NCBI GenBank assembly: GCA_963668625.2
Contig: CAXXKA010000010.1
Coordinates: 1 to 64,000, forward strand
Direction: 5' to 3'
DNA: 64,000 nucleotides
DNA from: an uncultured candidate division Zixibacteria bacterium
GTDB taxonomy: Bacteria > Zixibacteria > MSB-5A5 > UBA10806 > 4484-95
Position numbers and translations under genes: made by a program. Every line of letters starts with the position of its first letter. The first letter of the stretch is position 1. The notes beneath the pieces are model-generated. The model saw only the letters and a list, made by a program, of their open reading frames with translations. It did not search any database and was not told the origin of the DNA. Shown here one piece after another: positions 55,690-64,000 of the stretch.

Positions 55690-57033
55690 TTAGACGACAC
55701 CCTGGTCGAGCATGGAATCGGCGACTTTGATGAAGCCGGCGATATTAGCGCCATTGACATAGTTACCGGGAGTACCATACTCTTCGGCAGTTTCGACACT
55801 TGCTTTGTGGATGCTGACCATAATACCGTGCAGCTTCTCATCGACTTCTTCACGGGACCAGTTCAAGCGCTCACTGTTCTGGGACATCTCAAGACCGGAA
55901 ACAGCAACACCACCGGCATTGGCAGCTTTGCCAGGGCCGTAGAGAATCTTGTTCTCGATGAATACGCTGATAGCTTCCGGAGTTGACGGCATATTTGCGC
56001 CCTCGGAAACGACATAACAACCGTTCTTGATAAGAGTCTTGGCGTCATCACCATTGAGTTCGTTCTGGGTAGCGGACGGTAAGGCGACCTGTACGGGAAC
56101 GTTCCAGACACCGGTACCTTCGTGGTATTCGCAGCCAAACTTCTCGGCGTATTCTTTAATACGACCGCGTTTGACATTTTTGAGTTCCATAACGAAATCG
56201 AATTTCTCGCCTTTGATACCATCCATATCGACGATATAACCTGAAGAGTCGGACATGGTGACAACTTTACCGCCGAGCTGGTTGACTTTCTCGGTGGCAT
56301 ACTGAGCGACATTACCGGAGCCGGAAACGGAAACGGTTTTGCCCTCGAATGATTCACCTCTGGTTTTCATCATTTCCTCGGCGAAATAAACCTGGCCGTA
56401 GCCGGTGGCTTCCGGACGAATCAAGCTGCCGCCCCAATTGAGACCTTTACCGGTCAATACGCCCTCGAAAGCGTTGCGGAGTTTCTTGTACTGGCCGAAT
56501 AAGAAACCGATCTCACGACCGCCGACACCGATATCACCAGCCGGAACGTCAGTGTTCGGGCCGATGTGACGGAACAGCTCGCTCATGAATGACTGGCAGA
56601 AACGCATAACTTCGATGTCCGATTTTCCCTTAGGATCGAAGTCCGAACCGCCTTTACCTCCGCCCATAGGCAGGGTGGTTAAACTGTTTTTGAATACCTG
56701 CTCGAAACCCAGGAATTTCAGGATGCCTAGATTGACGGTGGGGTGGAAACGAAGACCACCCTTGTAGGGACCAATGGCACTGTTGAACTCAACACGGAAA
56801 CCACGATTAACCTGGACATTACCACTGTCATCTACCCAGGGAACTCTGAACATCAATACGCGCTCGGGCTCGCAAATTCTTTCTAAGACTTTGGCCTCGG
56901 CATAATGCGGGTGGCGATCGAGAACCGGCATTAAGGATTCGACCACTTCGCGAACTGCTTGATGGTATTCGTTTTCAGACGGGTTCTTGGCAATGATGTT
57001 CTGCATGAAAGCTTCAACTTTTGCGTCTGACAT
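55690..57033 (-). CDS. gdhA: NADP-specific glutamate dehydrogenase
   Basis: [22 protein letters not shown] (catalytic Lys), [22 protein letters not shown]. Confidence 0.96.
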
Positions 57034-57317
57034 CTATTACTCCTCGGTTGTGTTAGGCCATTGTGTTAAGGCCTTAACTAGTTTTTACTATTAACTTAAG
57101 TTATATTTACAAAAAACATTACCTAACTTATAGTTTAGTATAGTTTTGTTTTTCCTTTTATTAACCACTTGAAGAAAATGCTCCACGGACGTTAGATTTC
57201 AATCAAGTTACTAATTTCACAAGCTTCTAAATGCTGGAAAATACTGATAGGCATTAGCACAGGCAATCAGGTAAAACCTGATTATCTACTTCGTTTATCC
57301 TTATGGGGGATGGCGGG

Positions 57318-60775: not shown

Positions 60776-62527
60776 ATGCCGGTTATGAATCAGAATTATA
60801 AACACATCATTAAGTTCGACCGAGAATTTTTTACCGGTAAAGAAAATTTTACCTACATCGGTGGCGGTTCGCTTGGCGGCAAAGCCCAGGGGCTAGCCAG
60901 GATGCAGGATATATTGGTCGAGAAGATGAGAGATAAATACGCGCCTCTGGTTACCGTGAATATCCCCACATTGACCGTCATCGCGACTGATTATTTCGAT
61001 CAGTTCATGAAAACGAATGAGCTCTACGAGATAGCTTTCTCCGATATTCGCAACGATCGCCTGGCGCATGCTTTTCAGAAAGCCAGCTTACCGCCGCAAT
61101 TGGTCGGTGATCTCAGGGCGCTGGTAGATCAGGTTCATCAACCACTGGCGATTCGTTCCTCCAGTATGCTGGAGGACGCCATGTTCGAGCCGTTCGCCAG
61201 TGTTTATGCCACCAAGATGATTCCAAATAACCAGTTCGATGCCGATACGCGATTCCGCAAGCTGGTGGAGGCGGTTAAATTCATTTATGCCTCGACTTTT
61301 TTCAAAGATGCTAAAAACTATATCCAGATGACCAGCCATACAACCCGTGATGAGAAGATGGCGGTGGTAATTCAGGAGGTGATGGGCAAGCGCTACGGCG
61401 AGAGGTTTTATCCCCATATATGTGGTGTCGCTCGTTCATATAATTTCTATCCCACCGGCCATGCTAAACCGGAGGATGGCATTATCGACCTGGCGCTGGG
61501 GCTGGGCAAGAGTATCGTGGATGATTCCATTGCCTGGTCGTATTCGCCGAAATACCCGAAATCCGACCCGCCGTATAATAGCATAAACGAATTGCTTAAA
61601 TTCAGCCAGACGGAATTCTGGTGCGTGAACATGGGCAAACCGCCGGCGTTCGATCCTGTCAACGAGACGGAATTCATGTTCAGGCATAATATCGCCGAGG
61701 CCGAAGCCGACGGCACGCTCAAATATATAGCCTCGACATATAACGCGCAGAACGATAGAATCGTAACCGGCACCGGTGTCAAAGGACCGCGGTTGCTTAA
61801 TTTCGCGTCGTTAATCAGGGCGGGGCAGATTCCGCTTAATGAGATGCTCAAAGACATGCTAAAACTGTGCGAGGATGTTTTGGGAACGCTGGTGGAGATC
61901 GAATTCGCGGTTACCCTTGATGACAAAGGCTGCGCCCCGGCACGGTTCGGTTTTCTGCAAGTAAGGCCGATGGTGGTATCTAACGAGGAAATAGATGTCG
62001 ATGAGCACGAGTTGCTTTCTGAAAAAGTATTAGCGGGGGCACAGAATGTACTTGGCAACGGCGTGGTCGAAACCATAGCTAATATCGTCTACGTGAAAAA
62101 AGAAAATTTCGAGGCCCGACATACGCAGACTATCGCTAACCAATTGGAGAAGTTCAATCGTGAGCTGGTGCAGAAAAGAGAGCCTTACTTGCTCATAGGT
62201 TTCGGCAGATGGGGTACCTCTGATCCTCAGGGAGGTATACCGGTCAATTTCGGGCAGATATCCGGCGCCAAGGTTATTGTCGAGTCTACCCTGCCCCAGA
62301 TGGATTTCATAATGAGTCAGGGGTCGCATTTTTTCCACAATATCACCAGTTTCAAAGTATTCTATTTCTCGATAGATCATTGGGGCCAGAACCAAATCGA
62401 CTGGCAATGGCTCGAAAGCCAGGAGATAGTGAGTGAAACCGAATTTATCAAACAGGTCAAGCTTAAAGCTCCGTTAACCATAAAAGTTGACGGCAGATGC
62501 GGGAGAGGAGTCATCATTCATGACTGA
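60776..62527 (+). CDS. PPDK/PEPS N-terminal ATP-grasp protein with divergent swivel-His domain and no pyruvate barrel
   Basis: LGGKAQGL, PLAIRSSS.LED, MAVVIQE, GLG..IVD, EIEFA, LQVRP; C-terminal SQGSHFF and IKVDG. Confidence 0.8.
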   Translation: MPVMNQNYKHIIKFDREFFTGKENFTYIGGGSLGGKAQGLARMQDILVEKMRDKYAPLVTVNIPTLTVIATDYFDQFMKTNELYEIAFSDIRNDRLAHAFQKASLPPQLVGDLRALVDQVHQPLAIRSSSMLEDAMFEPFASVYATKMIPNNQFDADTRFRKLVEAVKFIYASTFFKDAKNYIQMTSHTTRDEKMAVVIQEVMGKRYGERFYPHICGVARSYNFYPTGHAKPEDGIIDLALGLGKSIVDDSIAWSYSPKYPKSDPPYNSINELLKFSQTEFWCVNMGKPPAFDPVNETEFMFRHNIAEAEADGTLKYIASTYNAQNDRIVTGTGVKGPRLLNFASLIRAGQIPLNEMLKDMLKLCEDVLGTLVEIEFAVTLDDKGCAPARFGFLQVRPMVVSNEEIDVDEHELLSEKVLAGAQNVLGNGVVETIANIVYVKKENFEARHTQTIANQLEKFNRELVQKREPYLLIGFGRWGTSDPQGGIPVNFGQISGAKVIVESTLPQMDFIMSQGSHFFHNITSFKVFYFSIDHWGQNQIDWQWLESQEIVSETEFIKQVKLKAPLTIKVDGRCGRGVIIHD

Positions 62528-64000
62528 TCAAACGAATCATTCGGAAAATCTTCTCTGGTTTTTCCAGGAACGAGCTAAAGAGCTTAACTGTATTTACCAG
62601 ATAGAGGAGATACTGAACGAACCCGAGGCTGATCTTGAGAAAGTATGTAACGGTATTATCGAGGCCATACCTCCGGGCTGGCAATATCCTGATGTTTGCC
62701 AGGTGAAGATTCTCATTCACAGCGAGTGTTACAAATCGCCGGATTTCGAAGAATCTAAATGGCAGCAGAAAGCCGATATAAAAGCGCAAGATGAAAAGAT
62801 CGGTGAGATCGGTGTATATTACACCAAGGAGATGCCGACGGCGGATGACGGGCCGTTCCTCAAGGAGGAAACCAAGCTATTGCAGACTATCGCCGATCGG
62901 CTGGGACATTTCATAACATTTAAAATGATGCGCCAGGTATTTCGAGATTACAGGGTCGCCGAAAAGGAACTTCACGAAAACAAAATAGAGGAATGGCGAG
63001 TAATCGTGAACCTTCTCCAGAGAACCGACAAAGATCTATACGCAAACCTGTCTCGTAAAGTTTTTCACCTGCTCTGCTGGAGCGGCATCGAAGAAGCTAT
63101 TCAACTGCAAAAAGAGATCGATACGATAAGCGGCGTTTTGGAGGATGATTCGACCTCGGATGACAATCGTCCCGGCAAACGCGGTATGAAATATTTTACC
63201 ACCGAACAATGCGAACAGGTATTCACCATTGCCGCCCGTCATCTGAGCAACGAGCAATTGCTGGCGAATATCCAGAAATGGATGCAGGAGGATAAGCTCG
63301 GTTTCCTGATGAAGGTAGTTAACCGCAATCTCTCGCTGGCCGAGGTTGCCGACGCGCTAAGACGCTACTACCATATCGATCCCGAGGGCAAGGAATTACC
63401 CGAAGTCAACGGCAGGGGAGTCACGGTTTCGTTAACCAGGCGTTTTCTATCCGGGCAGCTTAATTTTATTAATGTAGCCAAACAGTATTTGCGCGTGAGT
63501 GATTTCTATAAACTGGTTGATAAGATTCTATTCCTGACCGAGAGCCACGGTAAATTGGGCGGCAAAAGCGCCGGATTGATTTTAGCCCAGCAGATTTTGC
63601 AAAACTCCGATGAGTATACAGAGCAATTAAAAAATATCAAAGTACCTAAAACCTGGTATATTTCCTCCGATGTTTTACTCGGTTTTCTGAGTTATAACGG
63701 TTTGGATGAGGTCGTAGAGCAAAAATATAAAGATATCAACCAGATCCGTCTGGAATATCCTCATGTAGTCCAGACATTCAAAAACTCGCGCTTTCCTCCG
63801 GAGATAATAAACGGTCTTTCGATGGTGCTGGATGAGCTAAGCGATAAGCCGCTAATAGTGCGAAGCTCCAGTTTACTCGAGGATCGTATGGGGGCTGTTT
63901 TCTCGGGAAAATATAAGAGCTTGTTTATCGCCAACCAGGGCACCAAGAGCCAACGGCTGGAGGCATTAACCGATGCTATTACGGAGGTGTACGCCTCGAT
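62520..64000 (+). CDS. GAF-like plus PPDK_N ATP-grasp protein, partial (runs off the window; absent from the ORF track)
   Basis: ATG 62520; MTDQTNHSENLLWFFQERAKELNCIY...GWQYP...GPFLKEE; later GKLGGKSAGL and PLIVRSSSLLED..FSGKYKS. Confidence 0.85.
   Translation, partial: MTDQTNHSENLLWFFQERAKELNCIYQIEEILNEPEADLEKVCNGIIEAIPPGWQYPDVCQVKILIHSECYKSPDFEESKWQQKADIKAQDEKIGEIGVYYTKEMPTADDGPFLKEETKLLQTIADRLGHFITFKMMRQVFRDYRVAEKELHENKIEEWRVIVNLLQRTDKDLYANLSRKVFHLLCWSGIEEAIQLQKEIDTISGVLEDDSTSDDNRPGKRGMKYFTTEQCEQVFTIAARHLSNEQLLANIQKWMQEDKLGFLMKVVNRNLSLAEVADALRRYYHIDPEGKELPEVNGRGVTVSLTRRFLSGQLNFINVAKQYLRVSDFYKLVDKILFLTESHGKLGGKSAGLILAQQILQNSDEYTEQLKNIKVPKTWYISSDVLLGFLSYNGLDEVVEQKYKDINQIRLEYPHVVQTFKNSRFPPEIINGLSMVLDELSDKPLIVRSSSLLEDRMGAVFSGKYKSLFIANQGTKSQRLEALTDAITEVYAS

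Follow-up and report, generated by a model that had tools for sequence, protein, structure and literature searches.

The locus examined here, on contig CAXXKA010000010.1 of a candidate division Zixibacteria bacterium, raises the question of why a canonical glutamate dehydrogenase (GDH) gene, gdhA, and a two-component system should stand next to an operon that combines a degenerate GDH with two dikinase-like proteins. It occupies the end of the window, by which is meant the whole 64,000-nucleotide stretch analysed (contig positions 1 to 64,000). The histidine kinase (HK), response regulator (RR), and gdhA genes lie on the minus strand, opposed to a coupled plus-strand operon comprising a GDH-like gene, the gene of a 583-aa PPDK_N protein, and that of a larger, 1060-aa PPDK_N protein (Table 1). 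All genes that a preliminary description had given for this locus were confirmed by open reading frames and translations, and its view of them as a carbon/nitrogen-related unit is supported by the results below. The locus is a normal gdhA with a two-component regulator, joined to a widespread, unstudied operon of an apparently dead GDH and two ATP-using enzymes.

Table 1. Features of the locus (window coordinates, except where contig positions are indicated)
Feature	Position	Strand	Remarks
gdhA	55690-57033	-	447 aa, canonical NADP-type glutamate dehydrogenase
Tandem 13-nt direct repeat	57048-57073	-	candidate operator, 2 copies
Response regulator (RR)	57318-57971	-	217 aa, NarL/LuxR-type
Histidine kinase (HK)	57980-59185	-	401 aa, cytoplasmic
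Divergent AT-rich intergenic region, HK gene/cassette operon	59186-59476		sigma-70-like matches at 59318-59362
GDH-like gene, predicted from motifs to be a catalytically dead paralogue	59477-60766	+	429 aa, both ELFV Pfam domains
583-aa PPDK_N ATP-grasp protein	60776-62527	+	C-terminal His-loop module
1060-aa PPDK_N protein, first 493 codons in window	62520-64000	+	gene end at contig position 65702
Convergent metallophosphoesterase gene, outside window	contig 65705-66589	-	PF00149

A conserved cassette and its glutamate dehydrogenases

The plus-strand operon is one copy of a cassette, comprising GDH, the 583-aa protein, the 1060-aa protein, and a convergent metallophosphoesterase, which occurs in many phyla. 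The 583-aa gene starts 9 nt past the stop codon of the GDH-like gene, and the ATG of the 1060-aa gene at 62520 gives an 8-nt overlap with the stop of the 583-aa gene. The metallophosphoesterase is calcineurin-like (Metallophos PF00149, 36.7 bits; cut-off 21.5). This gene and the C-terminal nucleotidyltransferase of the 1060-aa protein sit past the window end, and both shape the likely mechanism. No Rfam match was found in the intergenic region upstream of the operon (59186-59476).

At loci sampled through the 583-aa protein, GDH lies upstream in 53/59, the large protein downstream in 58/59, and the metallophosphoesterase is present in 45/59. When loci were chosen by GDH alone, with at least 2.5 kb of downstream sequence, PPDK_N genes followed in 57 of 61 species genomes and in 41 of 44 metagenome contigs, a linkage far beyond chance. 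The preliminary description had mentioned PEP-synthase-like genes beside gdh in other anaerobes and had proposed a neighbourhood analysis of the PPDK_N proteins; such genes prove to be very widespread in this position, and the linkage is conserved from both sides. Between Zixibacteria, Krumholzibacteriota, Aminicenantes, Eisenbacteria, Calditrichia, Cloacimonadota, and other groups, labelled as in the record titles, the cassette proteins keep 50-68% identity. A form consisting of GDH and the large protein without the 583-aa protein is found at the second locus of this genome, and other loci (e.g., L116, L142, L143, L154, and L162) likewise gave no match to the 583-aa protein. No GDH-PPDK_N fusion was seen among 11 longer GDH proteins, which counts as weak evidence against the switch proposed below.

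A literature search found no paper describing the cassette, and public annotations go no further than "glutamate dehydrogenase" and "PEP/pyruvate-binding domain-containing protein". Taken at face value, these names would suit ordinary, unconnected genes, that is, a GDH of weak activity and enzymes resembling PEP synthase, brought together by chance. However, the gene order is kept across phyla, the operon shows translational coupling, the ATP-grasp proteins contain no PEP/pyruvate domain, and the host encodes a canonical pyruvate phosphate dikinase (PPDK), with the motif GGMTSHAA, on another contig, so that a chance neighbourhood is extremely unlikely.

The gdhA product matches the NCBIfam equivalog for NADP-specific GDH (NF006929) at 787.5 bits (cut-off 536), has all its catalytic motifs intact, and belongs to a different GDH class from the adjacent GDH-like protein (34% identity). 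A terminator-like hairpin lies by gdhA at 55658-55632, and the two copies of the 13-nt direct repeat (77% identity), directly upstream of its ribosome-binding site, form a candidate operator.

The GDH-like protein retains both ELFV domains (PF02812, 1.5e-49; PF00208, 5.5e-64), its dinucleotide motif (GFGNVG), and, for the substrate, lysines K71 and K95. It departs from its relatives in having GGANGG for GG[SGA]KGG (Lys to Asn), DIPAPEV for D[VI]PAPDV (Asp to Glu), and WNTWK for WMTWK (Met to Asn). The Lys of GG[SAG]KGG and the Asp of PAPD, which we take to be the catalytic residues of GDH, are both absent from this GGANGG/PAPEV gene, and by these motifs the paralogue is predicted to be catalytically dead. 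Six database relatives (72-87% identity) share the Asn and Glu changes, pointing to a conserved Lys-to-Asn/Asp-to-Glu subfamily under selection. Both catalytic residues are present in all 14 Ignavibacteria-class cassette GDHs and in the second copy of this genome, an intact cassette-type GDH located ~380 kb away and 67% identical to the dead copy.

The lysine is retained in 189 of 213 cassette GDHs. Lys-less paralogues, whose co-occurrence with the cassette the preliminary description had proposed to check, do recur in it, in nearly all cases with a canonical gdhA close by: gdhA is found in the locus for 14/18 Lys-less cassette GDHs (those with at least 1.8 kb of upstream sequence) versus 2/138 Lys-bearing ones, counts that are not independent, the association resting largely on one or two clades.

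Architecture of the two ATP-grasp proteins

PPDK_N (PF01326) is present in both the 583-aa protein (E=7.3e-35) and the 1060-aa protein (E=1.2e-60). The model of the 583-aa protein (pLDDT 80.5) aligns with PEP synthase 2ols (Z 22.5; residues 23-583 on chain residues 8-465), with PPDK 1dik (Z 16.3; 14-583 on 6-510), and with 5hv1 (Z 22.0), and it also matches rifampin phosphotransferase (RPH) and HpeI. In both 2ols and 1dik, the structural alignment takes in the region of the His domain; a Ser/Gly-His loop in the C-terminal module is invariant (S514, Q515, G516, H518, F519, F520, H521, and N522), and the protein stops after this module.

The 1060-aa protein is composed, in order, of a GAF-like sensor (10-155), a helical region (156-345), PPDK_N (345-729), the His module (H836), and a C-terminal nucleotidyltransferase (957-1004; NTP_transf_2 PF01909, 32.6 bits, cut-off 21). 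Its ATP-grasp and His residues K349, E454, D455, E695, Q707, R709, and H836 are found in 100/100 large-protein orthologues, and the Pol-beta nucleotidyltransferase motif, made up of G-S, D-x-D, and a third acidic residue, is likewise conserved (G968 in 100, S969 in 99, D980 in 100, D982 in 95, and D1025 in 100 of the 100). In the second large-protein copy of the genome, D-I-N replaces the D-x-D of the nucleotidyltransferase.

Both proteins share with PEP synthase, PPDK, RPH, HpeHI, CreHI, and PpsAB a PPDK_N ATP-grasp, by Pfam and by fold (Z 18-22.5). In the structural alignment, the module behind it lies over the phosphohistidine region of the PEP-utilising dikinases, and a flexible loop of this module has an invariant [S/T]-His. 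Unlike these dikinases, they lack GGxT[S/C]HAA, the motif given for the phosphohistidine swivel domain in an excerpt of PMC12167813, as well as any match to the PEP-utilizers and PEP-utilizers_C Pfam models, and they have neither a PEP-utilizers_C barrel nor a rifampin-binding domain as a third domain. Moreover, the larger paralogue also contains a GAF-like sensor and ends in a nucleotidyltransferase, and the genes are tied to GDH instead of pyruvate or aromatic metabolism. An hhalign comparison with the host-lineage PPDK aligned just 49 columns at 19% probability. Both proteins look like a PEP synthase, PPDK, or RPH that has ended after the phosphohistidine region, without the acceptor-substrate domain.

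Ending exactly where PEP synthase, PPDK, and RPH have their acceptor domain, the ATP-grasp/His-loop pair could act as a dikinase for small molecules, comparable to HpeHI, RPH, or PEP synthase, in which the GDH-fold protein would supply the acceptor domain in trans and hold 2-oxoglutarate, iminoglutarate, or glutamate. Such a dikinase would either yield a phosphorylated intermediate or use ATP to drive an amination, with Lys-less GDHs serving as pure substrate holders. GDH is the most constant neighbour of the PPDK_N genes, the dead GDH retains its substrate-binding lysines, and 2-oxoglutarate is, as pyruvate is, an alpha-keto acid. Two-component dikinases with the ATP-grasp split from the His/acceptor parts are known, as the excerpt of PMC12167813 indicates. 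Such a role nonetheless appears unlikely, given that the sensor domain, nucleotidyltransferase, and phosphoesterase suit a switch better than a pathway, that the 583-aa protein is dispensable in the GDH plus large-protein form of the cassette, and that no product-consuming enzyme is conserved nearby.

A further possibility is suggested by the hetero-oligomeric GDH of Thermus thermophilus, which, according to an excerpt of PMC9570180, consists of an inactive GdhA, a catalytic GdhB, and an AMP-sensing APRT homologue. Both systems keep an inactive paralogue and an enzyme-derived nucleotide-binding accessory protein, here as predicted from genes. The dead GDH and the intact cassette-type GDH might accordingly assemble into mixed hexamers within a non-covalent allosteric complex, with the PPDK_N proteins (PPDK_N being an AMP/ATP-binding domain) acting solely as ATP/AMP-sensing accessory subunits in the manner of the inactive adenine phosphoribosyltransferase homologue. 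The genome does contain an intact paralogue, but that same-class enzyme is distant, the adjacent active enzyme is of the other GDH class, and most cassettes have a single, active GDH. Furthermore, the accessory proteins here keep full catalytic motifs, and the near-invariance of the ATP-grasp, His-loop, and nucleotidyltransferase residues (95-100 of 100 orthologues) argues for chemistry over mere binding. We therefore regard a complex of this type as distinctly unlikely.

The shared sensor domain and the two-component pair

The statement in the preliminary description that the HK and the second dikinase-like protein begin with the same domain holds true: their N-termini match with BLASTP E=2e-21 (31% identity over 134 aa), and 26 HK and 40 large-protein domains have 17 signature residues in common. 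The domain model (residues ~10-147) adopts a GAF fold in VIA-align comparisons (Z 13.2 with 3cit, 12.5 with 4g3k, 11.6 with 8jrc, and 11.0 with 3trc), with Z of ~11-13.7 against the GAF domains of an HK, NLH1/2, NifA, and PtsP, the last represented by 3trc and 3ci6 (Z 10.6). Foldseek E-values were just 0.017-0.2, no Pfam GAF model matched at E<=0.01 (HK) or E<=0.05 (large protein), and a GAF cluster ranked 14 in an Atlas feature search (score 0.90), a lead only. The large-protein domains carry two cysteines, C24 (100/100 orthologues) and C60 (96/100), at positions that are Ala/Thr in all 26 HK domains. Taken together, sequence and models indicate a real, specific GAF-like sensor family.

The HK consists of this sensor (~1-140, with no Pfam match over residues 1 to ~140), a coiled linker, HisKA_3 (200-264), and HATPase_c (308-399), and the RR combines a receiver (Response_reg, 2.5e-26) with a GerE helix-turn-helix (1.8e-21), the standard domains of NarL/LuxR-type two-component systems with HisKA_3 kinases. 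What sets the HK apart from such systems is its cytoplasmic GAF-like sensor. No Pfam model covers the family of this sensor, which also occurs in a cassette enzyme and is in most cases associated with an ammonium transporter. Of 201 genomes of the class, 31 contain an HK orthologue, and RR orthologues (55-68% identity) invariably come after the HK orthologues. Among 24 informative loci, none has a gdh or PPDK_N gene beside the pair, 15 have an adjoining Ammonium_transp gene, and nine have unrelated neighbours; the pair stands next to the cassette in this genome only (1/213 in the sample). Since the orthologues lie away from gdh and PPDK_N and often by an ammonium transporter, the simplest view is that their sensor detects a diffusible signal of nitrogen status, and the shared domain probably senses nitrogen status via a small molecule.

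The preliminary description had envisaged an integrated wiring of HK-RR and cassette, with the dead GDH as a metabolite receptor that docks on the domain common to HK and large protein and signals through it to both outputs. Although the domain is present in both outputs, the dead GDH keeps ligand-binding residues, and all three genes meet at this locus, this wiring found no support and is very unlikely. The HK orthologue loci lack GDH in all 24 cases; active GDHs prevail among the cassettes, so the large protein with the shared domain normally works without a pseudo-GDH; GAF folds are usually small-molecule binders; and the HK domain is without the two conserved cysteines of the large proteins.

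A possible covalent switch on glutamate dehydrogenase

Our best reading, put forward tentatively, is a sensor-gated switch that combines ATP/phosphohistidine and nucleotidyl chemistry and acts on GDH. The GAF-like domain would bind a diffusible metabolite, akin to 2-oxoglutarate or glutamine, that reports nitrogen/carbon status. Within the HK, such a signal would set RR phosphorylation and, through it, gdhA transcription; in relatives, the HK-RR pair would instead govern the gene of the ammonium transporter. Within the 1060-aa protein, the same kind of signal would gate ATP-dependent phosphorylation of the His loop, the nucleotidyltransferase, or both, and these phosphoryl or nucleotidyl activities would covalently switch the GDH-fold partner, or the 583-aa paralogue, with the metallophosphoesterase removing the mark. 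The dead GDH may serve without catalysis, as a partner that binds ligand or as a target, while gdhA and the distant cassette-type GDH would do the chemistry; control of a dead GDH is sensible only if it has an active GDH partner.

A nitrogen-status sensor coupled to nucleotidyl or phosphohistidine chemistry on a central nitrogen-assimilation enzyme or relay is familiar from GlnE/GlnD and from EI-Ntr of PTS-Ntr, the latter being a GAF plus phosphohistidine enzyme. The cassette proteins are not sequence members of either family. In contrast to EI-Ntr, the phosphoryl donor here would be ATP, via the ATP-grasp, rather than PEP; in contrast to GlnE/GlnD, the nucleotidyltransferase is a minimal Pol-beta domain, and the target would be GDH rather than glutamine synthetase or PII. 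The locus is probably a control device, so far unrecognised, at the point where carbon and nitrogen metabolism meet.

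Organization and distribution of the cassette

Contig 10 of a 95.9%-complete, 4.3-Mb genome carries the locus in its opening 64 kb, and open reading frames and domain matches place all six genes of the preliminary description where it had located them. Its coupled plus-strand operon is likewise borne out: the degenerate glutamate dehydrogenase (GDH) gene is followed by the gene for a 583-aa PPDK_N protein after a gap of 9 nt with a GAGGGA ribosome-binding site, and the latter overlaps the gene for a second, large PPDK_N protein by 8 nt. A convergent gene for a calcineurin-like metallophosphoesterase comes next, outside the window; GDH, the two PPDK_N proteins and the phosphoesterase are referred to here as the cassette. 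An Rfam scan of 55000-64000 for RNA families gave zero matches at E≤1.

Features of the GDH locus and related sites on contig CAXXKA010000010.1
Feature	Position	Strand	Remarks
TonB-dependent receptor	52133-54526	+	N-terminus carboxypeptidase-regulatory-like
Staphylococcal-nuclease-like protein	54631-55185	-	just past the gdhA terminator
gdhA	55690-57033	-	NADP-GDH equivalog, 787.5 bits against a cut-off of 536; hairpin terminator after the gene
Two 13-nt direct repeats in tandem	57048-57073		TTGTGTTAGGCCA / TTGTGTTAAGGCC (plus strand); directly upstream of the gdhA ribosome-binding site
Response regulator (RR), NarL/LuxR-type	57318-57971	-
Histidine kinase (HK), HisKA_3	57980-59185	-	401 aa; first ~140 residues without a Pfam family
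Spacer between HK and degenerate GDH			291 bp, AT-rich
Degenerate GDH	59477-60766	+	429 aa
583-aa PPDK_N protein	60776-62527	+
Large PPDK_N protein	start 62520, end contig position 65702	+	1060 aa
Large-protein C24 codon	62589-62591
Large-protein C60 codon	62697-62699
HK-RR-amt-Gcw_chp operon	about 104293-107848		L190:7294-10848
Second, shorter cassette form	about 442665-447369		L006:7665-12369; ~380 kb off

The linkage, for which a neighbourhood analysis had been proposed as a check, is conserved. Among 59 species-genome loci found through the 583-aa protein, GDH lies directly upstream of the 583-aa gene in 53, the large protein downstream in 58 and the phosphoesterase in 45; five of the six loci without an upstream GDH have less than 300 nt of upstream sequence, and one has 2.2 kb. 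The last of these (L029/L050, from one Ignavibacteria-class genome) carries the 583-aa, large-protein and phosphoesterase genes with no GDH in that stretch, and is the only such locus with more than 300 nt. Reverse sampling through GDH, counting only loci with at least 2.5 kb of downstream sequence, placed PPDK_N genes after GDH in 57/61 species-genome and 41/44 metagenome loci, and one of the seven loci scored without them (L174) has PPDK_N genes in another orientation. The large protein has full-length orthologues in 17/40 related genomes. Record titles of cassette loci name Zixibacteria, Krumholzibacteriota, Aminicenantes/Acidobacteriota, Eisenbacteria, Coatesbacteria, Calditrichia, KSB1, Cloacimonadota, Bacteroidetes, Planctomycetota and others; across these records the cassette proteins are 50-68% identical, and public records name them just 'hypothetical' or 'PEP/pyruvate-binding domain-containing protein'. 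That such genes are functionally unconnected is extremely improbable given this linkage. The lack of any GDH-PPDK_N fusion among 11 longer GDH proteins is weak evidence against the switch interpretation given below. One metagenome protein in the database (P0254, 1028 aa) joins an apparently intact GDH to membrane segments and GGDEF/HD-GYP-type domains. The C-terminal portion, of low complexity, may be a gene-call artefact. The literature searched, which included few subscription journals and excluded supplements, yielded no description of the cassette.

Loss of the catalytic lysine in cassette GDHs

The degenerate GDH reads GGANGG, PAPEV and WNTWK, versus GG[SGA]KGG, PAPDV and WMTWK in relatives, in agreement with that earlier designation. 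Six database proteins with 72-87% identity to it share GG.NGG, PAPE[VM] and W[NQ]TWK and retain K71, K95 and GFGNVG; this GDH is not a decaying one-off. In a metagenome scan, none of the matches listed exceeded 71% identity. The catalytic lysine is kept in 189/213 de-duplicated cassette-type GDHs, the other 24 having N (8), S (6), Y (4), H (3), T (2) or, in one case, a failed motif search.

Co-occurrence of Lys-less GDH with canonical gdhA was counted in loci whose upstream sequence reaches 1.8 kb or more, gdhA being sought within 4 kb upstream. The script found it in 12/18 Lys-less loci versus 2/138 Lys-bearing ones. In two more Lys-less loci, gdhA lies at another place in the locus or beneath an ORF call that overlaps it, which brings the total to 14/18. 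These counts are phylogenetically non-independent, a single Aminicenantes-type clade (SH-aLRT 86) holding most of the Lys-less copies. The clade of the degenerate GDH is sister to that clade with weak support (SH-aLRT 67) and has the longest branch in the GDH tree; the 583-aa protein tree places the window cassette among Lys-bearing Zixibacteria-type cassettes (support 0.79), and two Thr variants (L060, L269) stand apart from both Lys-less clades.

The second cassette form in the same genome encodes an intact GDH (GGSKGG, PAPDV; 67% identical to the degenerate GDH) next to a large-protein paralogue of 1059 aa (56% identity), and contains neither the 583-aa gene nor the phosphoesterase gene. 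The nucleotidyltransferase motif of this paralogue is D-I-N, not D-I-D, as in 5/100 orthologues. New here are both the presence of two cassette forms within one genome and the Lys→Asn/Asp→Glu/Met→Asn(Gln) GDH subfamily, a conserved pseudo-GDH lineage paired with canonical gdhA.

The ATP-grasp proteins and the shared sensor domain

In a model of the 583-aa protein built with 35 homologues (pLDDT 80.5, pTM 0.80), Foldseek matched the leading ~415 residues to the ATP-grasp domains of HpeI, rifampin phosphotransferase, PEP synthase and PPDK (E 1.8e-10 to 1e-6). VIA aligned residues 23-583 with PEP synthase (2ols, chain residues 8-465, Z 22.5) and residues 14-583 with PPDK (1dik, residues 6-510, Z 16.3); as both alignments reach residue 583, the C-terminal module is predicted to overlay the phosphohistidine-domain region. 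This module carries an invariant S514 Q515 G516. H518 F519 F520 H521 N522, a low-confidence loop in the model; its counterpart in the paralogous large protein is S832-F-G-T-H836-F-F-Q. The canonical dikinase phosphohistidine motif is GGxT[S/C]HAA (PMC12167813); this motif and an acceptor-substrate domain are absent from both ATP-grasp proteins, and Pfam PEP-utilizers is not detected in them. The two would therefore resemble the first two-thirds of a dikinase, with membership failing on the third domain. For the 583-aa family profile, a PDB sequence search gave no matches at E≤0.01, and hhalign against the lineage PPDK (ATP-grasp plus His domain) aligned 49 columns at 19% probability, both alignments being low in diversity; an Atlas search with the His module returned unnamed clusters only. 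In the Aminicenantes-type loci L052, L053, L061, L067 and L069, the Lys-less GDH is separated from the divergent gdhA by two extra genes on the gdhA strand, one for a ~560-aa protein distantly paralogous to the 583-aa protein (22-25% identity) and one for a ~500-aa protein; neither has a Pfam match (checked in L052).

The large protein comprises PPDK_N at residues 345-729 and a Pol-beta nucleotidyltransferase at 957-1004. H836 and the ATP-grasp residues K349, E454, D455, E695, Q707 and R709 are each present in 100/100 orthologues, and the nucleotidyltransferase residues G968, S969, D980, D982 and D1025 in 100, 99, 100, 95 and 100, respectively. On another contig the host carries a canonical PPDK of its own, with a GGMTSHAA motif, which means that its PEP/pyruvate enzyme is not among the cassette proteins. 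We consider it unlikely that the ATP-grasp proteins are a metabolic dikinase for which the GDH fold provides the acceptor site.

As the preliminary description had noticed, one and the same domain opens both HK and the large protein (BLASTP E=2e-21, 31% over 134 aa). In a model of large-protein residues 1-345 built with 79 orthologues (pLDDT 78.5), residues 10-155 adopt a GAF-like fold and 156-345 are helical. The GAF assignment is a probable one because of VIA matches to a Pseudomonas HK GAF (Z 13.2), Aquifex NLH1/NLH2 (Z 12.5 and 11.7), NifA (Z 11.6) and the PtsP GAF domains (Z 11.0 and 10.6), rather than because of Foldseek, which returned nothing at E≤0.001 (best E 0.017); an Atlas search with the domain gave a GAF lead. 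Comparison of 40 large proteins with 26 HKs defined a common signature (E17 R18. K20 E21 L22, Q55 Y56 P57, W81, G95, Y101, G111 P112 F113 L114, E117, L120) and four systematic differences from large protein to HK (C24→A, Y26→H, G53→A, C60→T). C24 is present in 100/100 and C60 in 96/100 large-protein orthologues, with Ala/Thr instead in 26/26 HK domains; the two cysteines may form an enzyme-specific site for redox chemistry or metal binding.

A genome search recovered full-length HK orthologues (43-52% identity) in 31/201 genomes of the class, the window's genome included, and in neither of two same-genus genomes; a species-genome locus search gave 4 distant matches. Of 26 HK loci retrieved, one is a 1.7-kb fragment and one stops 248 nt past RR. 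HK is followed by RR in all 24 informative loci, and an ammonium-transporter gene is next, or divergent from HK, in 15/24, often with a Gcw_chp protein after it; the remaining nine lie among unrelated genes (another two-component pair, sugar epimerases with an exosortase, a sulfate permease, aminotransferases). On the window contig itself, the HK-RR-amt-Gcw_chp operon encodes a HisKA_3 kinase of just 260 aa without the GAF-like sensor, full-length in the same operon of relatives, and an RR 56% identical to that of the window. The simplest reading is that HK-RR belongs to a nitrogen-regulatory two-component family, of which this copy has been put before gdhA, beside a cassette with the same sensor domain. 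An HK that reuses the cassette sensor and the ammonium-transporter linkage of its orthologues are both new here.

The wiring proposed in the preliminary description, in which the degenerate GDH signals through the shared domain, draws on that domain being common to both proteins. The flanks of the 24 informative HK-RR loci contain no gdh or PPDK_N gene, and the window is the only one of 213 de-duplicated cassette loci with an HK of this family. We regard this wiring as very unlikely. A complex prediction for the degenerate GDH with large-protein residues 1-345, run without controls, scored 0.00 and speaks neither for nor against an interaction.

Proposed mechanism and significance

The architecture of the cassette, the conservation of its catalytic residues and its linkage are established by these observations. 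Our working interpretation as a whole, held tentatively and at slightly less than even confidence, is a sensor-gated phosphohistidine/nucleotidyl switch acting on a GDH-fold partner. A diffusible metabolite reporting nitrogen/carbon status would be the ligand of the GAF-like domain, which would set gdhA transcription through HK and, within the large protein, would control ATP-grasp-to-His phosphotransfer, nucleotidyl transfer or both, the acceptor being the GDH-fold partner or the 583-aa paralogue. The phosphoesterase may serve as the eraser and the degenerate GDH as a non-catalytic partner. GlnE/GlnD and the GAF-bearing EI-Ntr are among the precedents. Two-component dikinases offer another (PMC12167813), and the Thermus thermophilus GDH combines an inactive regulatory GdhA with an enzyme-derived AMP sensor (PMC9570180). 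A purely allosteric complex of the Thermus kind would accommodate the degenerate GDH; it is quite unlikely beside the invariant ATP-grasp and histidine residues of the large protein.

In a broader form of the switch interpretation, which is possible and clearly more doubtful, bacteria would have in the cassette a third type of nitrogen-status switch, in addition to PII/GlnD-GlnE and PTS-Ntr: a GAF-like receptor would gate ATP-grasp-to-histidine phosphotransfer and nucleotidyl transfer directly on GDH, the degenerate GDH of some lineages would be a dedicated receptor or adaptor subunit, and the receptor domain would have been borrowed by a two-component system setting amt or gdhA transcription.

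GDH stands at the carbon/nitrogen junction, and its control in bacteria is, to our knowledge, poorly understood beyond a few models. Here, a gene set highly conserved over many phyla, with intact ATP-grasp, histidine-loop and nucleotidyltransferase motifs, is locked to GDH, and the reuse of its sensor domain in a two-component system suggests a nitrogen-status ligand. Cultivable carriers would allow the system to be tested: a record titled Melioribacter roseus contains one cassette locus. Together, the cassette and the sensor it shares with an ammonium-transporter regulator suggest that many uncultivated protein-degrading anaerobes use an unrecognised mechanism for regulation or ATP coupling.
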